Shown: positions 1 through 30,536, numbered from the stretch's first letter. The stretch: 30,863 bases of DNA from a virus (IMGVR_UViG_3300045988_114391:1-30863); one strand, 5' to 3'. Numbers and translations are program-made. The notes: a model not told the origin generated them from the sequence alone.

Positions 1-99
1 AGTTTGTCCTTGGTTTTCCTTAGTCTCTTCTTCATCTCCCTTTCCGAAGAGTGTAGGGTACTCAGCGTTGATACTTGCAATAAGTTTACAAAAAAAAAC
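1..99. repeat. Exact 99-nt terminal duplication (1..99 = 30765..30863): circular-closure overlap or short direct terminal repeat
   Basis: Read directly: both ends read agtttgtccttgg...aagtttacaaaaaaaaac. A minus-strand ORF continues in frame across the junction. Confidence 0.9.
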
Positions 100-557
100 A
101 TTATGTCTGAAAATATATCTATTGTTAGATGAGTATTTAAGAATTCTGCCTCATCAATAGGGTCATAATCTTCTCCATACTTCTTTCCATTAGGTAGCAA
201 GAAACAAGCTGCTAGATTAGGCATAAAATCATCATACTGCTTATAAAAATTCTGAAAGTCAATATATTGACTGGCCGTCATCTTATTAACATTAAAAAAG
301 ACTTTATATTCTTTATTGCCAATATTATAAGTAGTTTCTGGGGTTTTTGGCTTATATGGAGTCTCTATAAATTTAAGATTATTTATAAACTCTTGTAGCT
401 TGTTTACTTCCATATTAGTTATATCTTCTATAGGTATATCACTAAGTACAGATACCATAGCTAAATTCATATCTAATTCATTTTCCCAGTCTTTTCGTAT
501 TATCTCAAACAGTCTTTTATAATGAGATAAATTCATTTCATTCCAATTCTTTATCAT
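1..557 (-). CDS. Hypothetical protein, 5-prime part. It starts at 557, runs off the window start and continues at the window end across the circular junction.
   Basis: ATG at 557..555 overlaps the terL stop as TAATG. 185 open codons (MIKNWNEMNLSHYKRLFEII...). No family recognised. Contains the T9 run at 90..98. Confidence 0.6.
   Translation of the reverse strand, partial: MIKNWNEMNLSHYKRLFEIIRKDWENELDMNLAMVSVLSDIPIEDITNMEVNKLQEFINNLKFIETPYKPKTPETTYNIGNKEYKVFFNVNKMTASQYIDFQNFYKQYDDFMPNLAACFLLPNGKKYGEDYDPIDEAEFLNTHLTIDIFSDIMFFFVNLLQVSTLSTLHSSEREMKKRLRKTKDK
90..98 (-). promoter_or_regulatory. T9 homopolymer (A9 on the + strand): candidate -1 frameshift site or homopolymer miscall
   Basis: mRNA reads atg ttt ttt ttt gta. 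The -1 frame (tgt aaa ctt...) stays open for about 105 further codons with five TGA codons and no TAA/TAG, ending at 30537. Frame 0 ends at TAG 30680. Confidence 0.45.
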
Positions 558-1840
558 TATTTAATTGCAATATTATAAGTTCCTTTATTTGTATTTAAAG
601 CATCATAAGCTAACATTAAAGATATACAAGTATCATCATTAAATCCAGATGGAGCATTATAACTAACATTTCCAGTCTTTGGATTATAACTGGCTTCATA
701 TAGTCTTAATTCATTTAATAGTTTATCATCCTTTAAAATACCAATCTTTTCGTTTTCTAATGCCGCTTGTAGCTTATTTACAATAGCTGCCTTAGACTTA
801 TTAGTAGTTAAAAACTTAACTATCCGTAATTTAGGATTCCTTTTTACAAGAATATCATAAAACACTGAACCTATTGAGTTTTGTTCGACTTGAACTATCT
901 TTATAAATCCCTGATACTCAGTGAATATATTTGTCAGTAAATCAACTTGTTCTGTTGGAGTTTTGTCGTTAAAATACTTTATAAAGACCATCTGCCCATT
1001 TTCATTTAAAGCTGTAATACAAGTATAGTCTTTACCAGAACCAGTAGCCCAGTCAACTCCAATATAGAGATTATGATATTCAGGTTTTTTATCAATTATA
1101 CAGTTAGCTATATTATTAAATAGGCAACCATCATCGTCTGCAAACTCTCCAAGATATTCAGTTCTAAATTTATTTTTGGAGGTTGTAAGGCGATACATTT
1201 CAAGTTTATCCTCACTTAACAGCATAGAAGTATCTTCTAATGCTCAATCAAAGGATTGATAATATTTACTAAAATTACCATCAAAGCCCTTTTTAAAGCA
1301 TTCATAAAAGAATCCTTCTCTAAACCTTGGAGTACTAATTATAAGTATTGGAGCATTCCATACATCAGCGATAGGTGTTAAAATTTCGTATACTTCATCT
1401 GATATATAAGCTGCTTCGTCAATTACTAATATTCCACTAACTGTAAATCCTCGTAATGAATCTTTTTGCTCAGCAGATTTAAATAGTATTTCACTCCCAT
1501 TAGTAAATTCAATCTCAAGCAAAGATTCATTCTTTTTCTTAATAATATCTGTGCCATCTAATGCCTTTACTAACTCTTTAAATATCTTTCTGGAGTTAGT
1601 AAGAGTTGGTTCAACAATACAGCTAATACTTCCAGGATAGTTAATTGAAAATCGTAATAGTTCATTTTCTGCCATAAAGGATTTACCACATTGTCTCTTT
1701 GCTTTTACAGTAAATATTTTTCCAGACCTATAAGAGTGCTCTAAAGCAGTATGTACCTTTAATTGATAGATAAATGGGCTATATCCTTTATATATTTTTG
1801 TCATTGTTAATTGGATCTCCAAATTTAAACTGGACTTCAT
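557..1840 (-). CDS. terL: Terminase large subunit (one in-frame TGA at 1244..1246; alternative start at 1804)
   Basis: Track ORFs 1244..1840 (Walker A QCGKS, Walker B LVIDEAAY) and 557..1225 (RNaseH-like nuclease, IGVDWATGSGKDYT, FNDDTCISL) are in one frame, separated only by TGA. 1284 nt = 428 codons. Confidence 0.9.
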
Positions 1841-2240
1841 TATTCTGAATAGCTACAATAGTCTCAGGTTGATTTAATCCAAACATACTATTTATAGTCT
1901 TAATAATCTCATTTGCAGCTCTAATATCTCCCTTACTAATAGCAGTATCCAGTAATGATTCCAATCTTGATAATTGTATATGTCTAAGATTTTTTATAAG
2001 GTTATCGTTCTTTTCAGCAATTATCTTATAAGCTTCTCCAATATATCTTGCAGCCGTTGATTGGCTTACATTATATTTACTTTGAAGTTCTTCACTTACT
2101 TTATTCCTTGACCATCCTTTGTTAAATAACCTTGCAGCATAAAGATATTTAGTCTTTACTTCGTCTATTTGTTCCTTTTCTACCTCTGCCTTTTTCGGTC
2201 TCCCTGTTTTCTTCGGCAGTTCCTGATTCTTTACTTTCAT
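1788..2240 (-). CDS. terS: Putative terminase small subunit (HTH protein directly upstream of terL)
   Basis: The segment GWSRNKVSEELQSKYNVSQSTAARYIGEAYK looks like an HTH. Position immediately 5-prime of terL. TAA stop. Confidence 0.55.
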   Translation of the reverse strand: MKVKNQELPKKTGRPKKAEVEKEQIDEVKTKYLYAARLFNKGWSRNKVSEELQSKYNVSQSTAARYIGEAYKIIAEKNDNLIKNLRHIQLSRLESLLDTAISKGDIRAANEIIKTINSMFGLNQPETIVAIQNNEVQFKFGDPINNDKNI

Positions 2241-2573: not shown

Positions 2574-2912
2574 TTAATTAATAAGTTTGTATATAACATC
2601 TATCAGCTTAGTAGATGCATCTTTTAATAATATCATAATATCTTTAATAATTGGAGTCATAAATGCTAATAGTGCAATATACCCAACCATTAAAATTGAA
2701 AATTGACTTGTAATAAGAATATATATTAATCCAATTCACCAAGTCATACATAAACTGCAATCTAAAGGTTTTAGTCTTCAATCTTCTTTATAAGGTATAC
2801 CTTTAAATAGTCTTTTTCAAATACTGTGTTTAAAACTATCCAAAGCCCCAGATAAATCAATTATAAAGACTATTATTACTGCTATTATAAATAATTCTAA
2901 CATAATCTTCAT
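2574..2912 (-). CDS. Small integral membrane protein (three in-frame TGA)
   Basis: Hand translation: MKIMLELFIIAVIIVFIIDLSG...PLDCSLCMTW[W]IGLIYILITSQFSILMVGYIALLAF... Hydrophobic segments. TGA at 2817, 2778 and 2736. TAA stop at 2574. Confidence 0.55.
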
Positions 2913-3382
2913 ACATAATTATAACCTGTTTTATATTTGCCATATAAACAAGCTCGAATTGAATAATCACACTTACCTAAAGCTTCCGCAGCTTCTTTAA
3001 TAGAATTATACTTTTTAACTAGAGTTCCGTTAAGATCATATTGAGCTACAGGTTTTGAAAGGTAAGAAGAAATCTTTTTATTTCTAGTTCCATAATTTGT
3101 ATTATATTTCCTAGTACATCATTCTAGATTTTCGACTCTATTGTCAGTCTTATCTTCATTAATATGATTTACTTCTGGTAAATTATATATATTTGGTATA
3201 AATGTTTCAGCTACTAATCTATGTATAGACTTCATTTTAACTTTTCCATTTTTTCATAGTCCTACTGCTAAGTAGTTATTTCTAATAGTAGGTTTAATAA
3301 ATTTATTTGTCCTTATACTATAAACTTCTCCGATATTATTTACTTTATAAAGACCTTCATAATTAGCTATATCCTTCCACAT
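2897..3382 (-). CDS. HNH homing endonuclease (NUMOD4-like N-terminus, HNH core, C-terminal DNA-binding tail); three in-frame TGA
   Basis: MWKDIANYEGLYKVNNIGEVYS..., HRLVAETFIPN, VNHINEDKTDNRVENLE[TGA]CTRKYNTNYGT. Invisible in the standard-code track. TAG stop at 2897. Confidence 0.85.
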
Positions 3383-3621
3383 ATTTTATTTCTAATATTA
3401 CTTATACACCTTGATATGGTAGTATGACTAATTCCCAATATTTTTCCCACTTCTCTATAACTGTGATATTCAGCATATAATATGATTACTGTCTTATCTG
3501 CCTTATTAAGCTCAAGTCATTTTGGATATATACTTAATAGTCTATCATCCATATTTGTAAACATACTATAGTCTATTTCATACTCAGTAAGTAAATCGTC
3601 AATATTAATCTTCCGTTTCAT
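3367..3621 (-). CDS. Sigma-70 region-4-like HTH protein (one in-frame TGA)
   Basis: LELNKADKTVIILYAEYHSYREVGKILGISHTTISRCISNIRNKI resembles the region 4.2 HTH of ECF sigma factors. TAG stop at 3367. Confidence 0.6.
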
Positions 3622-3913
3622 TTAATCAATCCTCCAATTCGTCATTTTGTTGTTCAAGTGGTTCTTTAACAATCTCATAATATTTCTTATAGGTATAGTA
3701 ATATCTACTTGTTTTACTAAACCAATAATTCTTAAATAATCTTGTAATCCAAAATTTCAATTCATTTTTGCTATCAAGCTGATTTAATTTTGGATTTGAA
3801 TACTCTAGTATTTCTACAAAAATCATTTGAACACAGTCATCATCTGCACCAAATTTTTGCTTAAGTTCCATAATAAATGGATAGTACTTTTCTACAATTT
3901 CGTTATTACTCAT
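3605..3913 (-). CDS. Sigma-70 region-2-like protein (track ORF 3626..3913 extended through TGA to TAA at 3605)
   Basis: EKYYPFIMELKQKFGADDDCVQMIFVEILEY...ELKFWITRLFKNYWFSKTSR resembles the ECF sigma region 2 pattern (..D.vQ..f..l.....W...i..N.....R). Its 3-prime end overlaps the start of the region-4-like gene. Confidence 0.5.
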
Positions 3914-4400
3914 ATGTTCACATATATCCTCCTGCTGTTTTTCGCTGCCCTTTAAGAACCTTTACAATATTTCTAGATTGTATATTTAGTTCTCTCTCAG
4001 CATCTATTGTTGAATCCCATCTTTTAATAACTATTCCATTTAGTAATTGCAGTATTGGTTTCTTATGACTATATCCAGCTCGCAGATTATGAGTTCCATA
4101 ATTATTATTATAATTATAAGTACACCATTCTAAATTACTTACGTTATTATTTGATTTATTTTCATCCTTATGATTTATACAAGGATAGTTATTCGGATTA
4201 GATATAAAAGTTTCAGCTACTAATCTATGTATATAACACTTCTTTTTCAAATTTTTATTATATAATGTTACTGTAAAGTACCCATTAGTTTTTACTTGAG
4301 GTTTTAACCTCTTTGGAACTGATGCTCTTAAACTTCATATTGAGCCATCAGTTCCAATTTGGTAGTTTTCAAAATTAAGTATTCTTTTATAGGCTATCAT
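3906..4400 (-). CDS. HNH homing endonuclease, paralogue of 2897..3382 (two in-frame TGA)
   Basis: MIAYKRILNFENYQIGTDGSI[TGA]SLRA..., HRLVAETFISN, INHKDENKSNNNVSNLEWCTYNYNNNYGT, C-terminus AGGYM[TGA]TYE then TAA. Confidence 0.85.
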
Positions 4401-4824
4401 TTGCTATATAATTACTAAATTCTGTATTTACATCTATCTTAATGGCTTTCTTTAAAGACAACTCTGTTTTTAATGAATAGCCATAAGTTCCTCCAAAATC
4501 TGTTGTAGAACAACCATATTTCATAGAATCCTTTATAAAGGCTTGTTTTATATCTTTAAATATATATACTCCATCATCAAATATTATTACTAATATAGAA
4601 TTATTTCTTGATAGCATATCAAATTTATCCCTATTAATAATAGTGGTTGGATATTTATTAGAATTGAATCTTCTTCTTTTAACTTCAATTATATAATCAA
4701 TTCCATTCCAATTAAATGTTCCATCATACCTGGAATAATCGTCTTTACATCATTCTATATCTATATTAAATTTCTCTTTAAATAGATTCTTTGTAAAGAC
4801 TAAACTTCTTATATCTGTTTTCAT
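4387..4824 (-). CDS. Hypothetical protein with a possible PD-(D/E)xK nuclease motif (one in-frame TGA)
   Basis: MKTDIRSLVFTKNLF...DIE[TGA]CKDDYSRYDGTFNWNGIDYIIEVKRRRF... joins track ORF 4387..4617. The D...EVK arrangement suggests a restriction-endonuclease-like fold. Confidence 0.5.
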
Positions 4825-5063
4825 TATTTTATATTATTAATTTTAAGTGTTAAATCACAATATTCTTCATATAAATTAGATACTTCTTCACTTGCTGGAT
4901 TAACCCACATTACTGAATCTAATTTATGTTTTAATTCTGCTCTTTCTAATCTTAATTCAAATGTTTTATGTTGTCTTTCCTGATAGACTTCATTTACTCT
5001 AAAACCTGCAACAATTGAAGATGCAATTAAAAGACCAACTAAAATTTTATTTATTTTTTTCAT
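4824..5063 (-). CDS. Small N-terminally anchored membrane protein; first gene of the leftward operon
   Basis: MKKINKILVGLLIASSIVAGF followed by a charged helical segment. TAA stop overlaps the next ATG as TAATG. Confidence 0.6.
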   Translation of the reverse strand: MKKINKILVGLLIASSIVAGFRVNEVYQERQHKTFELRLERAELKHKLDSVMWVNPASEEVSNLYEEYCDLTLKINNIK

Positions 5064-5107: not shown

Positions 5108-5140
5108 CAAAGATAATACATTTTTTATTCAATTTCCAAA
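5108..5140 (-). promoter_or_regulatory. Bacteroidota-type promoter for the leftward operon
   Basis: On the minus strand: TTTG (5140..5137), a 21-nt spacer, then TATCTTTG (5115..5108), about 45 nt upstream of the ATG at 5063. Confidence 0.5.
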
Positions 5141-5216
5141 TTTTTTAGGTATTATTTTTATTATTTTCAAAAAAATATTACTATTTGTATTTTTATTATA
5201 TATTAATAAAAACAAT

Positions 5217-5702
5217 ATGATTTACGTAATTAAATTAACTAAAACGAATTTTATTAAAGTTGGTTACACTACTAATATAAGTGGCAGACTAACTGCTTAT
5301 AAAAATACTATTCCAAATGAGATGATAGAATTTTTTATAGCAAAAGAAGGAAATAGAGATGATGAAAATTATTATAGAGATAAATATAGAGCATATAAAA
5401 CTAAGAGTAATTCAGAATGGTTAAAACTTCCAGATGAATTAATTGTAGAGCTATTAGCAGATTTTAAGAGTGCAAATAATATAAAAATAAATAAACAAAG
5501 CAAAAAAGAATGATATAATGAGAATATAGATAAATTAGTAGAATTGTGCTTATCTGGAGTATCATTAAATAGAGCTGCAATTCAATTAAATGCACTAAAT
5601 TGAGACTGAATAAAATATGCTAATCAAAGATACGAAAAAGAGAATGGCAAAAAATTAACAAAACTTTGGGTAAGAAAAATCAAGAAAAGTTTTGCAGAAT
5701 AA
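5217..5702 (+). CDS. T5orf172 (GIY-YIG-related) domain protein with a C-terminal HTH-like extension (three in-frame TGA)
   Basis: MIYVIKLTKTNFIKVGYTTNISGRLTAYKN...SEWLKLPDELI matches the T5orf172 pattern. Reads through TGA at 5511, 5601 and 5607 to TAA at 5700..5702. TGG is also used (KLWV). Confidence 0.75.
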
Positions 5703-5721
5703 AAATTTATTATTATATTTG
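5691..5721 (+). promoter_or_regulatory. Bacteroidota-type promoter P1
   Basis: TTTG (5691..5694), a 19-nt spacer, then TATATTTG (5714..5721). Shares the core ATTATATTTG with P2 and P3. Confidence 0.5.
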
Positions 5722-5769
5722 TAGTGTAAAGAAAAAAATAATTTTTTATTAAAAATAATACCCGAATTA

Positions 5770-5801
5770 TTTGGAAATTTAATTTTTATGTATTATATTT
5801 G
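5770..5801 (+). promoter_or_regulatory. Bacteroidota-type promoter P2
   Basis: TTTG (5770..5773), a 20-nt spacer, then TATATTTG (5794..5801). Confidence 0.5.
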
Positions 5802-5829
5802 CAGTATGAAACTAAAACTAATAATTCTA

Positions 5830-5855
5830 GGCAGGTGAAAGTCCTGCCACTTTTT
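5830..5855 (+). terminator. Intrinsic terminator or attenuator
   Basis: ggcagg-tgaaagt-cctgcc hairpin followed by actttttg. Confidence 0.65.
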
Positions 5856-5864
5856 GAATCTTAC

Positions 5865-5914
5865 TGTCAAGTTTTTTACTCACTTTTAGTAGTAAGAAAA
5901 TAAAAATATTGACA
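5865..5914 (+). repeat. Intergenic 50-bp element, copy S1
   Basis: TGTCAAGTTTTTTACTCAC-ttttagtag-TAAGAAAATAAAAATA-TTGACA. The 18-nt head is identical in S1, S2 and S3, and the ends are inverted (TGTCAA/TTGACA). Confidence 0.8.
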
Positions 5915-5944
5915 AAAACTTTAACTATTTAAATTATTAAAATT

Positions 5945-7666
5945 ATGAAAACATATTTAAACAATTTGATTAATGAGTTGCCAACTAACTGCTTATTTGA
6001 TAAAGGAAAAGTTGGATGTGGAGGAACTTCAATGGCAATTGAATGTAATAAGCCTTATGTTATTTGTGTTCCATTTACTAGCTTAGTTGAGAATAAACTT
6101 CAACAATATCCAAATGAAAGACGTACTGAGAAGATATTTGGAGTTTATGCTGGAGTTACTATTAAAGAGATTAAAGATTACGTAGATAGTGTTAAATGTC
6201 CTAAAATTATTGTTACATATAACTCACTTCCGAAGGTTATTTCTGCAGTTAATACTAAAGAATACAGTTTATTAGTAGATGAATATCATATACTATTTAA
6301 TCAGTATAGCTTTAGAAAGGATGCTATTAAACCTGTTTTAGAGAACTATAAATTATTTAAAGATTTTACATTTATGACTGCAACTCCTCTTGAAGAAGAA
6401 TTCGTATTAGATGAATTAAAAGATTTAGAATTAGTAAAACAAGAATGGGATGATGTTATTGAAACTAAGGTACAAGCCGTTAAATGTAAGAATGTTGAAG
6501 CTTCAACTATTAAATTAATTAATGCTGTTCTTAATAATCAAGTTGAAGGTAATGTTTATATATTTGTAAATTCTGTGGACTTTATAAAGAATCTTATTCA
6601 GAAAGCTAAACTTACAGAAGAGAATACCAGAGTTATATATTCCAAAAACAATAAAACCAAATTATCAATTCATAATTCTACAGTATTAGATGAACCTAAG
6701 AAAATAAATTTATTAACTTCTACAGTATTTGAAGGTTCTGATATTTATGATGAAAATGGAAGAATTGTAGTAGTAAGTGATGCTCAAAAAGCACAAACTC
6801 TTCTTGACATCTCAACTTCAATCCAACAGATTGCTGGCAGAATTAGAAATAGTAAATATTTAAACTGGATAACTCATCTTTACTCAGCAACAAGATATGC
6901 AGATATTAGTTATGAAGACTTTAAAAAGAAGAATATCCAGAATATTGAGGAAACTAAGATTGCTGTAGATGCTTACAATGCAATGCCTGAAGTTGCAAGA
7001 AAGAAACTTAAAGAATTTACATCTGATACTTATATCCAAGTAAATGATGATTTTACATTTACATTTGATCCAAATATGGCTAAGGTAGATATTTTTAACT
7101 TTAAAGTGACAAGAGGTTTATATTCTATTAGAACGAATCTTAATAAAGAATATATAAAGAATGGATTTAAAAAAGTAATAGAATGTGAAGACAACTCTAT
7201 TAAGATTGATTTTGAATCTGATAATAAACCATTTAAAGAACTAATTAAAGAAGTTAGAACAGAATGGGAAAATAAATTTAAACTGAATACTCCACTCTTA
7301 AATGATGCTATTATTAAATATCCTTGGTTACCAGAAGCTATTAGTAAATTAGGATTCGAAAAGATGGCAAGCTTGAAATATTGCATTTCGGATATTAAAG
7401 ATGCTCTATTAAAGAAATCAAATAAAAGTGCAGATAATAAAGCAGCTAAGAAGTTAAATCAATCAATTACTCTTGGAATGTGGTATTCTAACGCTGATAT
7501 TAAAAAGTTTGTTAAAGAAGCTTATGAAATTAGTGATATTACTATTACTCCAAAAGCAACAGAAATTGATAAATATTATGAAGTTAAAAAATGCCAGAAA
7601 AGAGTAAATGGTAAACAAACTGAAGGTTATGTAATTATTAATAAAAAATTTGTATTTAATAAATAA
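5945..7666 (+). CDS. SF2 (DEAD/DEAH-like) helicase; probable replication/early protein
   Basis: Walker-A-like KGKVGCGGTS, LLVDEYH (motif II), FMTATP (motif III), QQIAGRIRN (motif VI). 573 codons with no TGA. TAA stop. Confidence 0.8.
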   Translation: MKTYLNNLINELPTNCLFDKGKVGCGGTSMAIECNKPYVICVPFTSLVENKLQQYPNERRTEKIFGVYAGVTIKEIKDYVDSVKCPKIIVTYNSLPKVISAVNTKEYSLLVDEYHILFNQYSFRKDAIKPVLENYKLFKDFTFMTATPLEEEFVLDELKDLELVKQEWDDVIETKVQAVKCKNVEASTIKLINAVLNNQVEGNVYIFVNSVDFIKNLIQKAKLTEENTRVIYSKNNKTKLSIHNSTVLDEPKKINLLTSTVFEGSDIYDENGRIVVVSDAQKAQTLLDISTSIQQIAGRIRNSKYLNWITHLYSATRYADISYEDFKKKNIQNIEETKIAVDAYNAMPEVARKKLKEFTSDTYIQVNDDFTFTFDPNMAKVDIFNFKVTRGLYSIRTNLNKEYIKNGFKKVIECEDNSIKIDFESDNKPFKELIKEVRTEWENKFKLNTPLLNDAIIKYPWLPEAISKLGFEKMASLKYCISDIKDALLKKSNKSADNKAAKKLNQSITLGMWYSNADIKKFVKEAYEISDITITPKATEIDKYYEVKKCQKRVNGKQTEGYVIINKKFVFNK

Positions 7667-7680
7667 AAATATTATATTTG
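7649..7680 (+). promoter_or_regulatory. Bacteroidota-type promoter P3
   Basis: TTTG (7649..7652), a 20-nt spacer, then TATATTTG (7673..7680). The ATG at 7685 follows 4 nt later. Confidence 0.5.
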
Positions 7681-7684
7681 TGAT

Positions 7685-7846
7685 ATGGAAAGTGATATTA
7701 AAGAAACAATTAAACAAACAGAAGAGTATATTAAAGAATTGGATAAATGAATGCTCGAATGTAAAGAGGCTACTAAAAGATTTGGTGATATTATAGATAA
7801 AGTATTAAAAGATAAAGATTATATGTTTATTTCTAAATTTGATTAA
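7685..7846 (+). CDS. Small hypothetical protein (one in-frame TGA at 7748)
   Basis: MESDIKETIKQTEEYIKELDK[TGA]MLECKEATKRFGDIIDKVLKDKDYMFISKFD, TAA stop. Confidence 0.45.
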
Positions 7847-7848
7847 TT

Positions 7849-7989
7849 ATGGATGATTATTTATTTAAAAAGCTTGAAGAACTAGAATATAGAATAGTTC
7901 AACTAGAAAACCAGCATAGAGGTTTAGTTTGGGAAGAAGTAAAAGAAACACCCAAACCAGAGATTCCTAACGCAACATATACTGATTAA
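7849..7989 (+). CDS. Small hypothetical protein
   Basis: MDDYLFKKLEELEYRIVQLENQHRGLVWEEVKETPKPEIPNATYTD. Tightly packed after the previous gene. TAA stop. Confidence 0.45.
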   Translation: MDDYLFKKLEELEYRIVQLENQHRGLVWEEVKETPKPEIPNATYTD

Positions 7990-7990: not shown

Positions 7991-8134
7991 ATGAAATACC
8001 AAACCTATAAAGTATGTATAAATGGAGTGTATTATGTATATGTAATACCAGAAAATAGTAAGTTTTTAGTAGACTTACAAACAGGAGATTTAATACCTAA
8101 AGAAGATGATAAATTATTTGAAATGATGGAATAA
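7991..8134 (+). CDS. Small hypothetical protein
   Basis: MKYQTYKVCINGVYYVYVIPENSKFLVDLQTGDLIPKEDDKLFEMME, TAA stop, followed by a terminator. Confidence 0.45.
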   Translation: MKYQTYKVCINGVYYVYVIPENSKFLVDLQTGDLIPKEDDKLFEMME

Positions 8135-8141
8135 ATGAAAA

Positions 8142-8174
8142 TAGGAGGGCATAAACCCTCCTATTTCTTTTTTA
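8142..8174. terminator. Bidirectional intrinsic terminator between convergent operons
   Basis: taggaggg-cataaa-ccctccta hairpin with T-rich tracts on both strands. Lies between the + strand gene end (8134) and the - strand gene end (8175). Confidence 0.8.
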
Positions 8175-8744
8175 TTAAACATATCTTCACTTGAATCCTT
8201 TAGCTGTATTTGCTAATCCACCACATACTCTACTAATAGCTCCTCTATCAGTTCCTACAGATTTGGCTGCTTCTGTGCAACTTTCATACTCTTGAATAAA
8301 ATTACCATCTAAATCATACTGAGCTACTTTACGACATCTTTGTTTGTTATGAGCATCTACTTTAACTCTTCAAGATTCTGGGCAATTATGTTTCTTTCCC
8401 TTATTAGAATTAGACAGTTTCTTCTTTCATTCAGAATTAAATTTGACTCCGTAATTGCCTCCTTCTCCTCCAGGTTTCAAATTTAAACACATAGGATCAG
8501 TGTCCCATTTATCTCCAATTAGTTTGTATTCTAATTTAGATAATTCATCTGCATTAGTGCAAGTTGCCAAAATAATCTTTTGGTATGCATTAGGGAATCT
8601 TTTGTAATAATTAGTAATAATCCTTCCTGATCCTTTATATGGATCTTTATTTATGTCTTTACCTCTATAAATCCTTTTCCCAATATAATACTTGCCTCTT
8701 AATGTACCTGCAGTTAAAATTATTTTATAACAATAGTAAAACAT
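8175..8744 (-). CDS. GIY-YIG homing endonuclease with C-terminal DNA-binding domain (three in-frame TGA)
   Basis: N-terminus YCYKIILTAGTLRGKYYIGKR...KPGGEGG. Reads through TGA at 8427, 8370 and 8187 into ...KKHNCPES[W]RVKVDAHNKQRCRKVAQYDLDGNFIQEYESCTEAAKSVGTDRGAISRVCGGLANTAKGFK[W]RYV, then TAA. Confidence 0.85.
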
Positions 8745-9196
8745 TATATAATAGTAAATTTCTGTCTTCTCTGCAAACCCTCTTTATTCTTCAGTCCTAA
8801 ATGAATTCAACTAGCTATTCCATTTCTAGGTTTCTCATAAATAAGTTGATCAAAATCATACTTTTCAATAGCTTCAGTAATCCAAACCTGAAATTCTTTC
8901 ATTTGGCCGTTACTTGGAATTATATCTGCTGCATACCCTGTTAAATGAGCAGAAGTTGAAGATCCTCCTACTGCTTTATTAAGCTCCTTATTTCTAAAAC
9001 CAGAGGAAATCCTGATGCCTGCGTTACCAAGCTGATTGTCATCACAATACTTTGCCCATCTCTCTCTTATTGGGTCTAAAAGCTTCTCGACCAACTCTAT
9101 CAGGTGCTCTGTTATACTCTCATCTGGAGTGTTATCTATATGCTTAATTGAAGCAGTATCAGATCTTGTTAATTCTTCGAGTGTGAAATACTTCAT
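8744..9196 (-). CDS. Endolysin, peptidase M15 (VanY / L-Ala-D-Glu peptidase-like); one in-frame TGA at 8807
   Basis: FTLEELTRSD...IDNTP...LLDPIRERW...ISSGFRNKELNKAVGGSSTSAHLTGYAADI. After the TGA the frame continues [W]IHLGLKNKEG..., supplying the expected last Zn-ligand His. TAA at 8744. Confidence 0.85.
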
Positions 9197-9358: not shown

Positions 9359-10015
9359 TTATATTTTATTTAAAATTACACTTATCTGTATTCCAGCTCT
9401 TCTTAGATGTACTCAAGTATCATAAGGCATAGGTGTATCACAGAATGATAAACCTAAAATGCCAATATCTTTATCCTCAGTCTTTAAATAAAATACTGCT
9501 ATTTCATTCACTCTGTTGGATTTAAATGCATAATATAATCTTGGATCATCTGCTTCTAAACTATCTATATTACCAAACCATCCATCATTCTTAGAAAACT
9601 CTATAATTGAAGTATAGTCAGATAACAGGAAATCTTTATAATGGCTACTTACAGGTCTTATTCCTGGTTTTACTTCCTCTGCATTCATTACTCCATAGGT
9701 AAATGGAAGTCCTCCTAATCCAGTAGTTCCATTATGATATTCAATAACCCAAGCTCTATCAGCATTGGTACTTTGAAGCAATTCTTTAAGCTTATATTTA
9801 ATCTTCAAAGTTGCTTCATTTCTTGCAATAGTTTTAGAATTGTGAGTTTGTTCAATATAGGTTACAACCTTATTATAAACAATAGAGGGATTAAGTGTAA
9901 TAACCATTACATAGGATATAAATATTAATCCAATCCCTGCTTTAAATATCTTTAGTAATCCATATTTATCTACTCATTCTAATACCTTTCCAAACCAGTT
10001 TAATTTATTTTCCAT
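9359..10015 (-). CDS. N-terminally membrane-anchored hypothetical protein (two in-frame TGA)
   Basis: MENKLNWFGKVLE[W]VDKYGLLKIFKAGIGLIFISYVMVI... joins track ORF 9413..9907 and reads through TGA 9413 to TAA 9359. Confidence 0.55.
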
Positions 10016-10441: not shown

Positions 10442-11125
10442 TTACTTACTCTTTTTATTGTTATCACTTGAAGGGAAATCATAAGCTCTTTGCAGAGGAC
10501 CTTCACAAGAATTATATCTCCAACCTTTACCTCTAGCTCCACCTAACCAAATAGTACAAGATGAACTTGAATACATATTTGGATACATATCTTTAAGAGG
10601 TTTATAAGAATACAATTCAGGAAAATCATTATAATATGTAATTACCCAATTTTGTAATCTCGTTTTAAAGAAATCTGCTTTATCTCTATAATATTTCTTA
10701 ATAAGATTAACTTGGCTAATATCAGAAGTTAAATCTTTCTCATCATCAGTCCTCATAACCCCAAAATTACTCAGCTTAAATGAGATGGGTATAGTAATCT
10801 CACTTAATACTTGATAAAGTAAATAAGGCTGAATATAGTAATCTAGCAATTCTTTATATCTATGATTTTCTGGGTCATCTATTGAAGTAGGATCATAAAT
10901 AGGAGGTTCTATTGGATGAACTGGTTTATTTGGATCTTTTCAATCAATTACTAATTTCTGAATCTTTTCTAAGAGCTTAGTTCCAATTAATGACTGAAGC
11001 TCAATATCTTGTGCAAGTTTAATTGCTGACTGAAGATATTTACCAGAAACATTATTGTCTAGATTAGATTCTGATTTTATATAATCTTCAGATATTAATA
11101 GTACATTTCTATAATTATTTTCCAT
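10442..11125 (-). CDS. Hypothetical protein, possibly a head-tail connector (one in-frame TGA at 10940)
   Basis: Track ORFs 10940..11125 and 10442..10849 are in one frame. The gap translates without TAA/TAG (LVID[W]KDPNKPVHPIEPPIYDP...). Located just downstream of the portal gene. Confidence 0.55.
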
Positions 11126-12213: not shown

Positions 12214-12586
12214 AGCTTATATATTGATTTTGTCTATCATATTGGTATCTTTGATTTTCATAATCCCCAATTCTAATTAAACCAGTACTAAGAATTGGAA
12301 TAGGTTTTCCAGCTATCAGAATTTTAGTATTTGTAGTTAATATATTATCATAGGTGACTAATACATAGCTATTGTACTGATCTTGATATATGTTATTTGG
12401 GTCTATGACGATTTCCCATTTATTTGGGTTATAAAATAATACATACTGATACTCTCCATCTGGTGTATTATCATCTAACGTTATATCAAATTTATAATAT
12501 ATATTTTCAGAATAATTCTGATTATTTAAATTATAAATATAAATTTGTTTTGTTACAGTATGCTGAAGAACAAGACTATAATTCAT
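12200..12586 (-). CDS. Hypothetical protein
   Basis: Uninterrupted 128-codon ORF with a TAA stop. Y/N/Q-rich. Confidence 0.5.
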   Translation of the reverse strand: MNYSLVLQHTVTKQIYIYNLNNQNYSENIYYKFDITLDDNTPDGEYQYVLFYNPNKWEIVIDPNNIYQDQYNSYVLVTYDNILTTNTKILIAGKPIPILSTGLIRIGDYENQRYQYDRQNQYISYERK

Positions 12587-13241
12587 ATTTTCAAATATAT
12601 TTTTTATATGTGGGAATTATGCCTCTTAAAGCATTATATACACCACTTCTTGTAAATTCGTCTTCTAGCTCTCTAATTCGACTATATTTTTTAATTAGTT
12701 TTCCATCTAAAGAGTATCTGAGAATATATTTATATTTGGGATTTGGCCTAGTCTTTCAAGCTTCTTTCATAGCTTGTTTACATTCCTCACTTCTTGATTT
12801 TCCATATAAAGGATGAAATTCTCCAGATCTACAATAATTACTAGTATGTTTACCGTAATTTGGATTCTTTTCCCCTCTTTTTGCTTCAGACAATCTTTTT
12901 CTCGTTTCCTCAGTTATTATATGTCCAAATCCACCATCTCCTCCATCTGTCATATTATATCCATTTATTTTAGAATTAAATAAATTAATATATTTCTTTT
13001 CAGCTTCATCTAATTTTCTATTTAATAAACTTTCTGAGGTACAACAAAATACCTGTATAGCTTCGATAATAAAATTTTTATCTCCATATTTCCTAATAGC
13101 TCGACTTAAATGATAATCCAAACCAGATTTTGCTTTCAGTTTATGCTCAATGAACCTACGCTTAATATCTCTGGTGGTTTTTCCAATATAAATCTTATTG
13201 TTTATTAAATTAGTTATTTTATAAATTGTTCCACTTTGCAT
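12576..13241 (-). CDS. GIY-YIG homing endonuclease (two in-frame TGA)
   Basis: GTIYKITNLINNKIYIGKTTRDIKRRFIEHK...NGYNMTDGGDGG. Reads through TGA 12756 into KTRPNPKYKYILRYSLDGKLIKKYSRIRELEDEF... and ends at TAG 12576, overlapping the next start. Confidence 0.85.
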
Positions 13242-13308: not shown

Positions 13309-13334
13309 TTAAAGGAGACCTAAGCCTCCTTTAA
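13309..13334 (-). terminator. Intrinsic terminator
   Basis: ttaaaggag-acctaagc-ctcctttaa hairpin, followed on the minus strand by ttattttaa. Confidence 0.7.
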
Positions 13335-13384
13335 TGTCAAGTTTTTTACTCACTCAAAGTACTAAGAAAAAATAAAAACTGACA
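13335..13384 (+). repeat. Intergenic 50-bp element, copy S2
   Basis: TGTCAAGTTTTTTACTCAC-tcaaagtac-TAAGAAAAAATAAAAA-CTGACA. It ends 4 nt from the stop codon of the gene at 13389. Confidence 0.8.
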
Positions 13385-13388
13385 AAAT

Positions 13389-14408
13389 TTATGCTGATGC
13401 TAAAGTTCAGTTTTTAGATGTAGCTAATGATTTCTGTTCTTCAGTAAGTGCATTATAAACATCTGCTGCAAATATAATAGTTTGAGGCACTTCTCCAGTT
13501 AAATCAGCAGCTTTATTTAGAATATTATCAATAGCCAAAGAATTAAGACTTGGCAGTTTACTTAAATCTAAATACGTTTTTAACCCTACTATTCCTCCCA
13601 TATCAGTTATATAAGTATTATTGGAAGATCAGCTATAAAATGGCCAATTAGAAAAGTTTTGTCTTGCTGCACTTATACTTGTAACATCTCATTCAGGAAG
13701 TTCAGTTATATTATCAGGTAATTGTTCGTAGAATCCTCCTATTTCCATATTAATTACATTACCCGTAATATTAAATTTCATAGTTGGCAATATTGTCACT
13801 CTATCTTTTTGAACTCCAGTAAACATACCAGACATATTAATTGAACAACTTGATCTAGAACTATTAAACTCAATTTCATTTACATTAATAACAGAGTATG
13901 CAAAAGTACTGGTAAAACTAGAATTACCATTCTCTTCAATAATAAATTTTTGAATTATTGGAGAACTGTCTTGTATTTGAGTATTATAAAAAGCAAAGTC
14001 AGCATTACTACAATATATTTCTGCTGGAAATAAAATATCAGAACATTTAATTTGATAAAAAGTATACTCTAAATTATAATTCAAAATATTAAATAGACTA
14101 TTTAAATTTATTGTTATACCATTTAAATTTGCGTCTTGAAAAAATCATTTTGTAGAACTAGTATCATCAAATGAATATGTAACATTATCATATTGTTCTT
14201 GTGACATATTAGAAAATGCAAGTGTTAATCCACAATCATTTAAATTAATCTTTCCTCCACCACCTCCAGAAATCTGTCCTATCTTATCTGCATAGCTTCT
14301 AAAGGTATCGGAATCTGATACAGCAACACCTTTAGCTACAATAGCATCTTTAATGGCACTCTTAGTACCTTCAAGATACGTTAATTTATCAGAAATTGTA
14401 TTTGCCAT
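13389..14408 (-). CDS. Tail fibre / receptor-binding-type protein (four in-frame TGA)
   Basis: Track ORFs 14145..14408, 13689..14084 and 13407..13601 are in one frame, and the gaps carry only TGA. N-terminus MANTISDKLTYLEGTKSAIKDAIVAKGV...GGGGG is typical of phage fibre proteins. C-terminus LTEEQKSLATSKN[TGA]TLASA parallels 15305..16420. Confidence 0.65.
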
Positions 14409-15304: not shown

Positions 15305-16420
15305 TTATGCAACTCGATTTATGCTCCAATTCTTTGAAGCGATTAATGATTTCTGTTCATCTGTTAATTTATCATATGCAGTAGATTTGAATGATATACT
15401 TGTATTAGAACTTACTGCTGTGCCAATAGATTCAGCTATAGTTTGTAATGAATCTGTAGATAAATTTGGAGATTGTGCAAAATAAAGAACTCCTCCTTTA
15501 GTTAAACTCTCTCCTAATCCATTTAAAGCTCCTACAGTTACTAATTCTGGACAAGATGCCGCAAAACTAGTACAATCTGTAACAAGATGACAATCTATTT
15601 CTGGTGTAGCTGTTAATCTACTACAAGTACTAAACATATAGCTTATATCTGTAATTCCAGTAAAGGTAAAATTACTTGGAATAGTTGTTAGATATAATGC
15701 TCTATGAAACATATGATTACAATCTCCTTTAAATGGAATATTAATCGTTATATTATCTATATTAGTAGCTCCATCAGCTGTATCTGCAAATGCCCATTTT
15801 GGATCTACTAATACAAGATTTTGAAAATTATTCATTACAGAGAAATCATTATTATCTATTTTTACTCCAATAAATAAATAATTTGCACTTACTTCTTTAG
15901 TAGTTGTAGGTATTTTAACATTAGATAAAGTAGCACTATGTATTGTTTGACCCAAAAATTGAGATTCACTAGACCATCTTCCATATGCTTCATTAAGATT
16001 AGTAATCTCCTGGTTATTTAGATCAAAATGAGATGTTTTAAAAAACCCTCCTTTTCTACTTAAATCTCCACTATTTAACTTTACATCTGCATATGTTTGA
16101 GCAGAACCTATAATACTACAAAGAGGTACACCATCTATATTAAGGGCTAATTCACTTAAATCAGCAGTAAAACTAATTACTGTAGAAGTAAGGCCAGATC
16201 CTCTACCCATTCAATCCCTTTGTATATCATTTATAGTTCCATCATAACTGCTAAATACATAACTACAAGGATCAACTATTGTAGTGCCTTGAGGAACTGG
16301 ATTAGCAACTGTAACTATTTGTGGATTACATATAGGCCAGACTTTGGTACTGCCAACATAAATAGCAGTACCTTGTCTGTCACCTACATAAAATGTCTTT
16401 AAATCATCTCTAATATTCAT
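15305..16420 (-). CDS. Leucine-rich-repeat-like (BspA/DUF285-style) receptor-binding candidate (one in-frame TGA at 16211)
   Basis: Track ORFs 16211..16420 and 15305..16210 abut in frame across a single TGA. Repeats of the type MF..C..L..(I/V)P. C-terminus LTDEQKSLIASKNWSINRVA. Confidence 0.65.
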
Positions 16421-16421: not shown

Positions 16422-18545
16422 TTATTCTACAATTAAATATTGTGTATTAGGATCTTTAGTTGATAAACCATCATACTCTGATTGAGTTAGAACAGTAATA
16501 GTATTTATTTGAGGTTGGGTTCCAGTTCCAGCTTCAATATAGTTTCCAGCAGGCTGAATACCTAAATCTGATAAACTCTTATTGCCAGATAACTCAACAG
16601 AATTAATCTGAGGTTTATTTGTTAACTGAGTATAATCGGTAGTCCCTCCACCACCAGATATTTCAAGATTACCTTCTCCTAAAATACTTTCACCATTAAT
16701 AGTCTTTATATTAGTACCAGAAACTAGTTGCTCTTGATAACTATGATAACTAGTATCTGCTGATACTCCAGTTGGAGTAATAGTAGTTTGAACTACAGTA
16801 TGATTAGCTGTAGTACTTTCAAAATGGAAAGTAGCTTGAATATTTTCTCCTGAAACAAAACATACTTCTGGAGCTGCTATATCACCATAACCTAGAATAT
16901 TTACATAATAAAGCTCAAATGGTGTTTTATTAGCTATAGCATTCTTAACCGCAGCAAAATCTCCAGAAAGATGAGCAGTGGAATTTATAAATAGAAATGG
17001 AATATTAGAGCCACTTTCAATTTCTATATTACCTTCTCCAAGTAAAGACTGACTATTGATTGTTTTGATATTAGTTCCACTTACAAGTAAATCTTGTTTA
17101 GTAGCCATCTCTTTATCAAGAGCATCAATCTTGTTTCCATCTTCTTCTTGCTTTGTTTTAATAATTGATATGTCTGAAGTATTAGTTGCTACTTGAGTAG
17201 ATAGAGATTCTACCACAGAAGAATCAGCTTTACCAGCAAGTTCTGTTTTTGTTGCATAATCTCCTACAGGCTGTTTAGTAGCAAGCTGCTCATCAACATA
17301 AGTCTTATCTGCTTTACCTGCTAAATCTCCAGAAACCTCTGCTTCACTTACAAAGTTAGAATCATTAGTAAGCTCACTAATTTTAGTTGGAATATCACTC
17401 TTTAAAGCATAATCACCAACTGGTTGGTATCCAGATAAATCCCAATTATCTTCATTAAAAGCTAATGGAGCTTGTGGAGTAAATACACCTTGCTTAGCTG
17501 CAAGTTTGGCATCTACTTCATCTTTAGTATAGCCTTTATTAGTAAGATCAACCTCAGTAACTTTAACAGTCATATTACCATTATTTACTAAGATTGCATT
17601 AATAACTACTAATGCACCATTATCTTGGAAATAATAACCATATAAATCAATAGTTTCAGGATGTTCAATAGTTGCAACAGGAATAACTATAATATCACCT
17701 TTATATGTAATCTGGCAGAATAAATAGAAGTCCAGATTAGTTCTAATAAAGTCATAGATATGTTTCTGTCTTACAGGATCATTCTCATTTAAATTAAGTA
17801 AGAAATGATTCTCAAAAGCAGAGATTACATTATCTATAATAGATATATTCTTTCCTGCTGTAAGCGTTTCCTGTTTTGAAGCTATCTCTTTATTAATAGC
17901 TGTATTTAAAGCATCAATTTCAGCTTTAGTATATTTATCTGCTAATTGTGCATATAGAGGACCATTAACAATACCAGCTTGATTAGTCTCTGTATTATAT
18001 ATTGGAAGTTCAACTGCTTCTCCAGTTTGATTACCAAATACAGGAGCTAAAGTAACTTTAGATGGGACTGATTGAATATTAATGGCAGGTACTATTGAAG
18101 CTGCTCCAGATAATTCAGTTCCATTTAAAGATGGTTTGTTACGAATAGTATTATAATCTGCAGAAATAGTATTCTCTTCAATTACTATACCGTCACCTTG
18201 AACGAGTGTATTTTGCTTTCCAGCAGTGGCTTCAGTAATCTCTGTAGTTACCTCTTCTTTAGTTGGATAGTCAGCTAGTTTCTCAGTAATCTGATTATCA
18301 ACATCTTCAATAGAAGGAATTCCTAATTCTTTAGAAGGAATATTTCCATTTAATTCAACCCCATTGATTTCAGGCTTAAATTGAAGATCTTGATAGTTAC
18401 TTGATCCTAACTGAGAACCATCCATAACCTTAACTTCATCATCCTTGTCAATAACAATAACTTTAGTCACATTTGACTTATCTATTGTTTCGACTTCAAG
18501 GACATTAAGATAGGGAAGAATTGTCTTTTCAGTTTCGTTTGCCAT
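16422..18545 (-). CDS. Long tail fibre protein
   Basis: 707 codons. Repeated (L)VSGTNIKTIN(G/S)(E/Q)S(I/L)LGEGN(I/L)EI and KP.(I/L)N(G/S)(V/T)EL.G units and coiled-coil spacers. No TGA. Confidence 0.8.
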   Translation of the reverse strand: MANETEKTILPYLNVLEVETIDKSNVTKVIVIDKDDEVKVMDGSQLGSSNYQDLQFKPEINGVELNGNIPSKELGIPSIEDVDNQITEKLADYPTKEEVTTEITEATAGKQNTLVQGDGIVIEENTISADYNTIRNKPSLNGTELSGAASIVPAINIQSVPSKVTLAPVFGNQTGEAVELPIYNTETNQAGIVNGPLYAQLADKYTKAEIDALNTAINKEIASKQETLTAGKNISIIDNVISAFENHFLLNLNENDPVRQKHIYDFIRTNLDFYLFCQITYKGDIIVIPVATIEHPETIDLYGYYFQDNGALVVINAILVNNGNMTVKVTEVDLTNKGYTKDEVDAKLAAKQGVFTPQAPLAFNEDNWDLSGYQPVGDYALKSDIPTKISELTNDSNFVSEAEVSGDLAGKADKTYVDEQLATKQPVGDYATKTELAGKADSSVVESLSTQVATNTSDISIIKTKQEEDGNKIDALDKEMATKQDLLVSGTNIKTINSQSLLGEGNIEIESGSNIPFLFINSTAHLSGDFAAVKNAIANKTPFELYYVNILGYGDIAAPEVCFVSGENIQATFHFESTTANHTVVQTTITPTGVSADTSYHSYQEQLVSGTNIKTINGESILGEGNLEISGGGGTTDYTQLTNKPQINSVELSGNKSLSDLGIQPAGNYIEAGTGTQPQINTITVLTQSEYDGLSTKDPNTQYLIVE

Positions 18546-18636: not shown

Positions 18637-19161
18637 TTAAGCACCTACAACGCTTTGGATAGCTTCTGCAGATAACTCATAAGGATAAGAATCTGAATCT
18701 GTTGAAAGTGTCAGAGTATAAGCATTCTGATCACCTTTAGCAGTACCAGTAACACCCGTACCAGCGGAAGCGCTTACATAATCATCTTTACCTAAGAACC
18801 AATACTTACCATTGCTATCTTCAACAACAACTGCAAGCTGACCAATTGATAAAGCTGCAATCTCTACTCGTTTTGCTGTTTCCATCTTTGTAAATACAAG
18901 AGCAAGCTCATTACTTACATAATTAACACCAGCACTTTCATCTACATTTAAAGTTGAGGTTAGAGAACCAGTAGCCTTTCTAAATTGGTAGTTATACCAT
19001 TTAGCTGAAGACTCAAGAGTAATAGCTGAAATCATATTGCTCTCAGGATCAACCGTTACACTTTTAACATCTGCATACTGGGTAATCCATACCTGTTTGA
19101 TTCCACCCAATGAAGGTTGGCAATCAAGTGTGATTCCTGCGATAGTTATTAAACAAGCCAT
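18637..19161 (-). CDS. Major tail (tube) protein candidate
   Basis: GGIKQVWITQYADVKS...IAALSIGQLAVVVEDSNGKYWFLGKDDYVSASAGTGVTGTAKGDQNAYTLTLS resembles siphovirus tail-tube families. Follows the capsid gene. Confidence 0.6.
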   Translation of the reverse strand: MACLITIAGITLDCQPSLGGIKQVWITQYADVKSVTVDPESNMISAITLESSAKWYNYQFRKATGSLTSTLNVDESAGVNYVSNELALVFTKMETAKRVEIAALSIGQLAVVVEDSNGKYWFLGKDDYVSASAGTGVTGTAKGDQNAYTLTLSTDSDSYPYELSAEAIQSVVGA

Positions 19162-21425: not shown

Positions 21426-21474
21426 TGTCAAGTTTTTTACTCAAATTTGTATCTAAGATAAATAAATTTTGACA
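21426..21474 (+). repeat. Intergenic element, copy S3
   Basis: TGTCAAGTTTTTTACTCAA-atttgtatc-TAAGATAAATAAATT-TTGACA. Confidence 0.8.
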
Positions 21475-30415: not shown

Positions 30416-30458
30416 TTTTGTTAAAATATATTATTTTATATATTAGTAGCTAATGAAA

Positions 30459-30479: not shown

Positions 30480-30485
30480 TTTATA

Positions 30486-30535: not shown

Positions 30536-30536
30536 G

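Follow-up and report, generated by a model that had tools for sequence, protein, structure and literature searches.

A complete 30.8-kb human-gut phage genome that has TGA codons in frame but no recognizable decoding gene

Phages that read TGA as a sense codon (translation table 4, here called code 4) are well known from the gut, and most of them carry no detectable opal suppressor. Suppressor transfer RNAs (tRNAs) of this kind were detected in 35% of code-4 phages in one survey (10.1101/2021.08.26.457843) and in 15% in another (PMC11210395). Recoded phages without a detectable suppressor had already been discussed by Yutin et al. (PMC7886860), and several opal-recoded Zeta crAss-like phages encode 18 to 25 tRNAs with no TCA suppressor among them (PMC12386605, Table 1). 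Ever since suppressor-free recoded phages were first described, the reading of their stop codons has called for an explanation. Here, we analyzed the viral genome IMGVR_UViG_3300045988_114391:1-30863, whose whole stretch of 30,863 bp (GC content, ~29%) is referred to below as the window, and in particular the question of how its TGA codons are decoded. The window is one more example of the code-4 gut phages covered by the surveys of Ivanova, Yutin, Borges, and Cook and falls in the majority class that lacks a recognizable suppressor. An earlier note on this DNA had considered a recoded phage without decoding machinery of its own to be unusual, a view that detection rates of only 15 to 35% contradict. 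The value of this genome is rather that of a minimal, abundant, tRNA-free test case (~30.8 kb, 37 genes) in human gut metagenomes. The explanation that we place first, tentatively and at somewhat less than an even chance, is that of a complete gut phage of a standard-code Bacteroidales host that carries no decoding genes and whose UGA codons are read by the host tRNA-Trp(CCA) once release factor 2 (RF2) stops competing.

The code-4 gut phages of Borges et al. (10.1101/2021.08.26.457843), which include the small Garnet, Amethyst, and Topaz clades of 22 to 34 kb, are likened to the window here by description. Low GC, partial recoding, a putative replication gene in the standard code, recoding of lysis genes and most structural genes, low-GC standard-code relatives without TGA stops, and the absence of a suppressor (as in 65% of the phages there) are features in common. 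The window departs from the model of Borges et al., which stresses the recoding of structural genes, in that its capsid, tube, and scaffold genes are TGA free, while its sigma-like regulators and a 53-residue open reading frame (ORF53) behind an early promoter are recoded. The share of recoded genes in that survey was 26 to 71% in phages of standard-code hosts and ~90% in code-25 phages on code-25 hosts (10.1101/2021.08.26.457843); in-frame TGA codons occur in 21 of the 37 genes of the window (57%), which lies within the former range and fits staged or limited decoding. The TGA-recoded crAss-like phages (PMC7886860; Zeta phages of Babkin et al., PMC12386605) resemble the window in likely host phylum, in reassignment, and, for some of them, in being suppressor free, and near-identical tail-fiber DNA is found in the window's family. 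Unlike them, the window has an unrelated virion module, a genome three to six times smaller, and no RNA polymerase, DNA polymerase, or tRNA genes. Phages of Mycoplasma and Spiroplasma and the code-25 phages of Absconditabacteria and Gracilibacteria also use TGA as sense without a suppressor of their own, and they match the native code of their hosts; the endolysin, promoters, and TGA avoidance of the window argue otherwise in its case, and its TGA specifies Trp, not the Gly of code-25 phages. Finally, phages with a code-switch module (suppressor tRNA with or without tryptophanyl-tRNA synthetase and release factor 1 [RF1], e.g., Jade; Lak and crAss-like phages with RF2) reach a similar end result, but no component of such a module was found in the window in tRNA, Rfam, or Pfam/PHROG/NCBIfam scans.

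Read with code 11, the genome falls apart into a series of short ORFs. When only TAA and TAG terminate, these fragments merge into long genes, and the summed ORF length rises from 8918 to 12135 amino acids (aa). Genes made whole by reading TGA as sense include those for the terminase large subunit (TerL), the portal, the endolysin, and tail proteins of 919, 1146, and 726 aa. The three large tail genes, all on the minus strand (21542..24301, 24301..27741, and 27744..29924, with four, six, and six in-frame TGA codons, respectively), are the clearest recoded genes, and relatives have full-length gene calls that match their sizes. In an alignment with nine relatives, in-frame TGA codons of the window stood opposite TGA 116 times, TGG 46 times, and TTC once, and TGG codons of the window stood opposite TGA 45 times. 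The NLEWC motif of two HNH paralogues is written with TGG in one copy and with TGA in the other. On the basis of these exchanges and this paralogue pair, TGA is assigned to Trp (code 4) and not to Gly. Among 34 genes for which stop codons were tallied, 31 end in TAA, 3 in TAG, and none in TGA, and ~40% of Trp codons are TGA. Annotation of this genome therefore requires translation table 4; otherwise, most genes look fragmented.

The window starts and ends with the same 99 bp (an exact direct repeat, 1..99 and 30765..30863) and is therefore a complete genome that closes into a circle of 30,764 bp, in line with the earlier note; the sequence of one relative runs uninterrupted across the junction. 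Intergenic space in this genome totals only ~1.5 kb. Public metagenomes contain ~3,960 homologues of the gene annotated as major capsid (19202..20119; the name is taken from an nr record). The best 120 of these share at least 87% identity, and none of these 120 lies on a contig above 32.7 kb; where a source is named, it is the human gut. Contigs of relatives are for the most part 29 to 34 kb, and those in IMG/VR are mostly 15 to 34 kb. This is a tailed phage whose family is very common in the human gut and has genomes of ~30 kb, and it is not a fragment of a larger genome. A search of a cultured-phage collection with the capsid gave no match, and the best TerL matches among cultured phages were Thermus and other phage terminases at 24 to 28% identity. 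More distant relatives (44 to 56% capsid identity, gene order kept) use the standard code, and the low-GC members among them already lack TGA stops, which fits the published evolutionary path to recoding.

No decoding gene was recognized in this closed genome. ARAGORN found no tRNA or transfer-messenger RNA (tmRNA) in the window, and Rfam at an E value of ≤10 gave no tRNA, tmRNA, or hepatitis delta virus (HDV)/theta-like ribozyme match there. Relaxed ARAGORN runs on the circularized genome (90% and 80% thresholds, introns, mitochondrial models) returned only low-score noise in coding regions. Because a tRNA is shorter than the 99-bp repeat, the linear scan already covers the junction, and ARAGORN on the circularized sequence likewise gave no tRNA. 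Likewise, ARAGORN found no tRNA in 30 loci of 8 to 22 kb from ~30 related contigs, which are partial genomes that together span all genome regions. A Pfam search of 33 proteins (ORF53, ORF46, and ORF47 left out) gave no release factor, aminoacyl-tRNA synthetase, or tRNA-modification match, and neither did searches of PHROGs with ~10 proteins and of NCBIfam with ~7 proteins. The earlier note had seen no suppressor tRNA and no release-factor gene by eye, and these scans bear it out. One call, a "tRNA-SeC(tca)" at 10905..11002 in the 80% ARAGORN run, was rejected as one of 11 low-score calls: it is antisense in a coding gene, has mismatched acceptor and anticodon stems, and has a fold z-score of −0.41. 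A repeated intergenic element of 41 to 57 nucleotides (nt), described below, was also rejected as a decoder RNA; it is too short, and its loop varies by copy, with no conserved UCA. With no phage tRNA or release-factor gene, the decoder must come from outside the recognizable gene set. Rfam also listed "sraA" matches, well under the gathering score, at two intergenic sites on the minus strand (8130..8230 and 30448..30536). These are most likely chance matches to hairpins, and the first overlaps a terminator at 8138..8167.

To describe TGA usage across the family, Trp codons were tallied in homologues from the 30 related loci. A helicase-like gene (5945..7666) had 1 TGA versus 104 TGG codons in 22 homologues, with all three conserved Trp columns TGG throughout; a 79-aa gene (4824..5063) had 0 versus 20 in 14 homologues; and the major capsid (0 versus 36), tube-like (18637..19161; 0 versus 27), and scaffold-like (20141..20746; 0 versus 6) genes had no TGA in any relative. 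In these five genes, 12 of 12 conserved Trp columns were TGG in every relative. In the remaining genes, 21 conserved Trp columns were all TGG and 63 were mixed or all TGA (Fisher P = 5.7e-7). The portal gene was intermediate (12 TGA versus 104 TGG), most other genes were at 30 to 80% TGA, and TGA predominated in the genes at 9359..10015 (83 versus 59) and 13389..14408 (61 versus 14). Two sigma-like genes had family TGA fractions of 0.31 (3605..3913) and 0.81 (3367..3621; 13 TGA versus 3 TGG). Homing-endonuclease genes ranked highest as a group, at 0.53 to 0.72. In the window itself, recoding affects the endolysin gene, a holin-like gene, the portal and TerL genes, and the tail genes. TGA is thus avoided by the putative replication gene and the most abundant virion proteins and used in regulators, in lysis and tail genes, and in mobile genes. 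This pattern suggests that UGA decoding is limiting and that it may gate the late program.

The earlier note had listed in-frame TGA codons at 5511, 5601, and 5607 in a T5orf172 gene and at 7748 in ORF53, and all four are in frame. It had also placed TGA in the sigma-like pair and in all four homing-endonuclease genes, and these carry one each and three, two, three, and two, respectively. Its statement that both terminase-side genes carry TGA holds for TerL (557..1840), which has one and splits into two ORFs under code 11; the neighboring gene at 1788..2240 and the ORF at the junction have none, and the "both" probably referred to the two code-11 halves of TerL. Sense use of TGA does reach well beyond the late and lysis genes, as that note had argued.

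Bacteroides promoters have the consensus TTTG at −33 and TAnnTTTG at −7. A scan of the window for TTTG-N17-23-TAnnTTTG gave four matches, all in early intergenic regions and all correctly oriented, a total that is not above chance (4 observed versus 1.9 expected). The four sites are kept at the same places in ~20 relatives, with spacers that vary. The first (TTTG-N21-TATCTTTG; 5108..5140, minus strand), a pattern match, would drive a leftward early operon that starts with the 79-aa gene. Two others on the plus strand, P1 (5691..5721) and P2 (5770..5801), lie upstream of the helicase-like gene, and the fourth (7649..7680, plus strand), within the 3′ end of that gene, would drive ORF53 (7685..7846), ORF46 (7849..7989), and ORF47 (7991..8134). 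A bidirectional intrinsic terminator (8138..8167) marks the meeting point of this rightward early unit and the leftward genes. From 5217 to 8167, the order on the plus strand is the T5orf172 gene, P1 and P2, a hairpin, a 57-nt element, the helicase-like gene, a promoter, ORF53, ORF46, and ORF47, and the terminator.

Four genes of these early units lack TGA: the helicase-like gene (with its single TGA family-wide), the 79-aa gene, ORF46, and ORF47. The 79-aa protein (4824..5063, minus strand), the first leftward early product, has an N-terminal hydrophobic segment and no Pfam or PHROG match. It is followed in the leftward operon by a gene for a 145-aa protein (4387..4824, minus strand) that carries an in-frame TGA and matches no family; a D...EVK motif, judged by eye, suggests a PD-(D/E)xK nuclease. 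ORF46 and ORF47 (both plus strand) are small and TGA free, and ORF46 is conserved in relatives. ORF53, also conserved and on the plus strand, has TGA (7748) as the codon for Trp22. Most relatives have TGA at this codon, and two (L028 and L029) have TGG; because the next residue is Ile in several relatives, restart at an adjacent ATG cannot explain ORF53. The T5orf172/MUG113 (GIY-YIG-like) gene (5217..5702, plus strand; Pfam PF13455 and PF10544) sits in the divergent intergenic region and was found in 8 of 21 relatives, and one relative (L016) has ~92 nt where the window has 5146..5733; judged by this distribution, it is an accessory insertion. The claim that TGA decoding is needed from the start of infection therefore stands in part. 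ORF53, the gene at 4387..4824, and the sigma-like pair do carry TGA, but the 79-aa and helicase-like genes, which lie behind promoters of both early units, are TGA free, and the T5orf172 gene is accessory. In all, the standard code suffices to translate just four or five of the early genes, which makes a short list of candidate switch factors.

At the level of sequence, the product of the helicase-like gene (5945..7666, plus strand; 573 aa) matched nothing in PHROGs, NCBIfam, or the PDB, and Pfam gave only a subthreshold match to Helicase_C_2. Its AlphaFold model (predicted local distance difference test score, 78.7) has the two-RecA core of a superfamily 2 (SF2; DExH) helicase and a C-terminal domain without assigned function. 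Foldseek matches to the model were generic (DbpA, UAP56, SecA, the herpes simplex virus 1 [HSV-1] origin-binding protein, and Mfd). On the basis of the model, this protein is probably a replication-initiator helicase. The predicted structure shows only a generic SF2 helicase core, and these searches tied the protein to nothing in translation. A homologue with 45% identity is encoded by a TAG-recoded prophage that lies beside an integrase and a tRNA-Thr(CGT) attachment site in a 132-kb bacterial contig (L070; ERZ28598220 scaffold_71). There, the helicase homologue and the integrase are stop free in the standard code, and recoding affects the genes for the terminase, portal, and capsid. Host genes on its flanks have a GC content of 38 to 40%, and TGA is the stop codon of one of them.

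A standard-code member of the Bacteroidales is the most likely host. A Bacteroidota host is indicated by the promoters, the near absence of Shine-Dalgarno (SD) sites, the relatives of the endolysin, and the tail-fiber DNA in common with crAss-like phages. An SD core at −18 to −3 was found in 3 of 33 genes, and sigma-70-type promoter matches were fewer than in shuffled sequence (16 versus 27.7). By record count, endolysin matches with named cultured hosts were led by Bacteroides (58) and Prevotella (15), and crAss-like phages were also among the matches; by identity times coverage, Achromobacter and Moraxella phages came first, followed by Bacteroides. A capsid relative with 51% identity is encoded within a contig of 646,692 bp that bears the title "uncultured Bacteroides sp." The tail-fiber gene is a receptor-binding module, and its presence in both phage types implies a host range in common within the Bacteroidota. 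The labels of metagenome-assembled genomes (MAGs) that contain capsid relatives (Clostridia, Lachnospiraceae, Bacteroidales, and Saccharimonas) were set aside as host evidence because the binning was judged unreliable.

With such a host, infection could proceed as follows. Host RNA polymerase would start at the four Bacteroidetes-type promoters at ~5.1 to 5.8 kb and at 7.65 kb, and the first conserved products, the 79-aa and the 573-aa SF2 helicase-like proteins, would be made in the standard code. Reading of UGA as Trp would be needed for nearly all else: ORF53, the nuclease-like protein, the split sigma-like factor, the terminase, and the portal, as well as the tail, holin-like, and endolysin genes and all homing endonucleases. 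Decoding of UGA would in this way act as a gate on the sigma-like factor and thereby on the middle and late programs. The decoder would be the host tRNA-Trp(CCA), acting as a near-cognate tRNA on UGA with the competition of RF2 removed, either by a phage-induced change or through inherently weak or leaky termination in the host. Four considerations favor this reading: near-cognate decoding by tRNA-Trp would insert just the residue assigned to TGA; no tRNA was found in the loci of relatives; TGA is avoided in the most abundant virion proteins, as if decoding were slow or costly; and most code-4 phages lack a detectable suppressor. We infer the host identity, the expression timing (read from promoters only), and the decoder in this scheme. 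It is conceivable, if rather unlikely, that one of the TGA-free early products (the 79-aa protein, the 573-aa protein, or the product of ORF46 or ORF47) switches the cell without a suppressor by neutralizing RF2 or by altering the host tRNA-Trp or the ribosome. If true, such a suppressor-free switch might also account for the code-4 phages without suppressors, which are the majority.

Several points weigh against near-cognate decoding by the host tRNA-Trp(CCA). The split between an early standard-code set and a later recoded set is not clean: a conserved TGA is present in ORF53, which immediately follows a host-type promoter, and 16 of 16 homologues of the leftward operon's second gene (4387..4824) contain TGA. 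Genes with six TGA codons need efficient decoding, and to our knowledge, near-cognate reading is not established as that efficient in Bacteroidales. No phage protein was tied to RF2 or to tRNA by Pfam (33 proteins) or by the PHROGs and NCBIfam subsets. The base after the codon gives little help. In the window, A follows 49% of TGA and 28% of TGG codons (P = 0.02), and family-wide, the figures are 42% and 33% (P = 0.058), a weak +4 bias, so codon context was dropped as evidence for leaky decoding. The proposed host comes from indirect links in sequence, and the capsid relatives other than the one in the 646,692-bp contig lie mostly on short contigs in MAGs of mixed labels. Finally, the crAss-like contigs that share the tail-fiber module have TGA at ~77% of their Trp codons (99 TGA versus 29 TGG unique sites), and an unrelated phage with a host module in common and this level of TGA would also fit a decoding capacity present in the host before infection.

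Such a capacity is the next best explanation, although we consider it improbable: a host with a nominally standard code would already decode UGA, by means of a suppressor tRNA(UCA) encoded on the chromosome or a mobile element or a tRNA-Trp(CCA) variant whose anticodon stem has 4 bp, and the phage would simply accumulate TGA. That two unrelated phage types with tail-fiber DNA in common are both TGA recoded, and that the mobile homing-endonuclease genes are the most TGA rich of all (0.53 to 0.72), would be expected on this account, and a host-encoded suppressor was proposed by Yutin et al. (PMC7886860). Means of this kind do occur in standard-code bacteria. In a genome survey (PMC13092985), the 4-bp-stem tRNA-Trp(CCA) is reported for 6.5% of standard-code bacteria and suppressor tRNAs for 0.3% of standard-code genomes; Bacteroides oleiciplenus is listed there with both the 4-bp and the 5-bp variants, and the 4-bp variant is described as raising UGA read-through in E. 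coli. However, constitutive and efficient read-through would mis-terminate the host's own genes that end in TGA, and early and highly expressed genes avoid TGA throughout the family, which argues against freely available decoding.

A second source of decoding outside the phage would be another phage. Coinfecting TGA-recoded crAss-like phages could supply a suppressor tRNA or another switch factor to the same cells, a scenario that we regard as somewhat less probable than a capacity of the host. Members of the 30-kb family (L012 and L023) and TGA-recoded crAss-like contigs of 85 to 168 kb have tail-fiber DNA that is 95 to 99% identical, and one IMG/VR contig of 148,631 bp (IMGVR_UViG_3300045988_175865; L028/L032/L035/L055) joins a relative of the 30-kb phage to a TGA-recoded crAss-like phage, with the join point at the tail-fiber gene. 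The large phages have a 772-aa TerL that matches crAss-like phages, including those of Bacteroides, Flavobacterium, and Azobacteroides. The crAss-like phage also encodes a homologue (29% identity, E = 3e-27) of a 218-aa membrane protein of the window (9359..10015), and some opal-recoded Zeta crAss-like phages encode tRNA-Sup(TCA) (PMC12386605). In the crAss-like loci examined (L033, L034, L057-L066, L071-L083, and the L028/L032/L035/L055 contig), ~50 kb of genome sequence from several contigs was scanned and contained no tRNA of any kind, with 50 to 115 kb lying outside this sample. Moreover, the 30-kb phage carries complete sets of structural, lysis, and replication genes and is by itself extremely common, and a need for coinfection in every case would be demanding. 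The simplest reading of the 148.6-kb contig, and the probable one, is an assembly error, a mis-join through the common tail-fiber repeat. It was likewise rejected as a larger parent genome, since it consists of two phage types fused at the tail-fiber segment that they have in common. Judged by the near identity of the sequences, the receptor-binding module was recently exchanged between two unrelated recoded phages. MT835470.1, considered as a proxy for the partner, has the standard code and no tRNA and was uninformative, as was a cultured-phage comparison with the tail fiber of the window and the fiber protein of the partner phage.

The earlier note had offered a host that itself reads TGA as Trp as one of its explanations, and this now appears very unlikely. 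A host that is natively code 4, as Mycoplasma and Spiroplasma are for their phages, would account for the lack of tRNAs in the loci of ~30 related contigs, for TGA in regulators and in some early-operon genes, and for the complete absence of TGA stops, and it is the explanation given by Cook et al. for many INPHARED code-4 phages (PMC11210395). The M15 endolysin, however, implies a host with peptidoglycan, which excludes the wall-less Mollicutes, and the Bacteroidetes-type promoters, the scarcity of SD sites, and the tail-fiber DNA point to Bacteroidota. The UGA=Trp lineages named in the consulted passages of the 42,109-genome survey are Pseudomonadota, Verrucomicrobiota, Patescibacteriota, and Mycoplasmatales, with Bacteroidota not among them (PMC13092985), and a gut host this common should be in a survey of that size. 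Nor would a native code-4 host be expected to leave TGA in only 57% of genes and at ~40% of Trp codons at ~29% GC or to give strong gene-specific avoidance of TGA. A phage-encoded decoder RNA beyond the reach of standard tools (a divergent, split, or truncated tRNA), a possibility raised by Borges et al. and Yutin et al. for which the conserved structured intergenic elements at 5830..5917, 13331..13387, and 21426..21466 might be candidates, has an equally slim prospect, given that the relaxed ARAGORN runs (80 to 90%, with intron and mitochondrial models) gave coding-region noise only, that the sole UCA candidate (10905..11002) has mismatched stems and an unremarkable fold, that Rfam at E ≤10 had no tRNA-like or theta/HDV-like match, that the loop of the repeated element varies among copies without a conserved UCA, and that just ~1.5 kb is intergenic.

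The regulators that would be subject to UGA decoding are a pair of sigma-like genes on the minus strand. The product of 3605..3913 is region-2/extracytoplasmic function (ECF)-like (a weak match), and that of 3367..3621 has a region-4 helix-turn-helix (HTH); matches for the pair include Pfam Sigma70_r4 and HTH families, a PHROG sigma factor, and TIGR02937 (E = 8e-4). The two genes overlap by 17 nt in different frames, and they could be a split or frameshifted sigma factor. Since both carry TGA, any phage-directed transcription would depend on UGA decoding.

Five genes are of homing-endonuclease type, which is many for 30.8 kb: two HNH/NUMOD, one NUMOD1-only, one GIY-YIG/NUMOD3, and the T5orf172 gene. 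Those other than T5orf172 lie at 2897..3382, 3906..4400, 8175..8744, and 12576..13241. Their presence differs among relatives, and this patchiness together with the highest TGA fractions suggests that homing-endonuclease genes circulate among TGA-recoded phages. A repeated element (TGTCAAGTTTTTTACTCA...TTGACA) is present in three copies of 41 to 57 nt, at 5861..5917 (plus strand), 13331..13387, and 21426..21466. All three have one absolute orientation despite the opposite directions of the flanking genes, and each adjoins a GC-rich hairpin. All three sites are insertion spots of GIY-YIG/T5orf172 genes, here or in relatives. The hairpin beside the first copy (5830..5848, plus strand) is followed by a T-run; it is terminator-like, lies between P2 and the start of the helicase-like gene, and may serve as an attenuator in the leader or mark where a short early RNA ends.

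The endolysin gene (8744..9196, minus strand; Peptidase_M15_3, Pfam E = 2.4e-13) has one TGA and is conserved in relatives. The adjoining gene for the 218-aa protein (9359..10015, minus strand) encodes an N-terminal membrane segment and has no family annotation; its crAss-like homologue (L055, 266..958) has the motif ADRxWxIxYHNG in common with it, and the protein may be lysis related. A block of higher GC (0.33 to 0.37, versus ~0.28 elsewhere) extends from 14410 to 21346 on the minus strand and is TGA free except for one TGA in 15305..16420. It contains the tail-fiber (16422..18545), tube-like, major capsid, and scaffold-like genes and a gene for an S78_2 protease (20753..21346). The tail-fiber gene is highly variable among relatives and has been exchanged with crAss-like phages.

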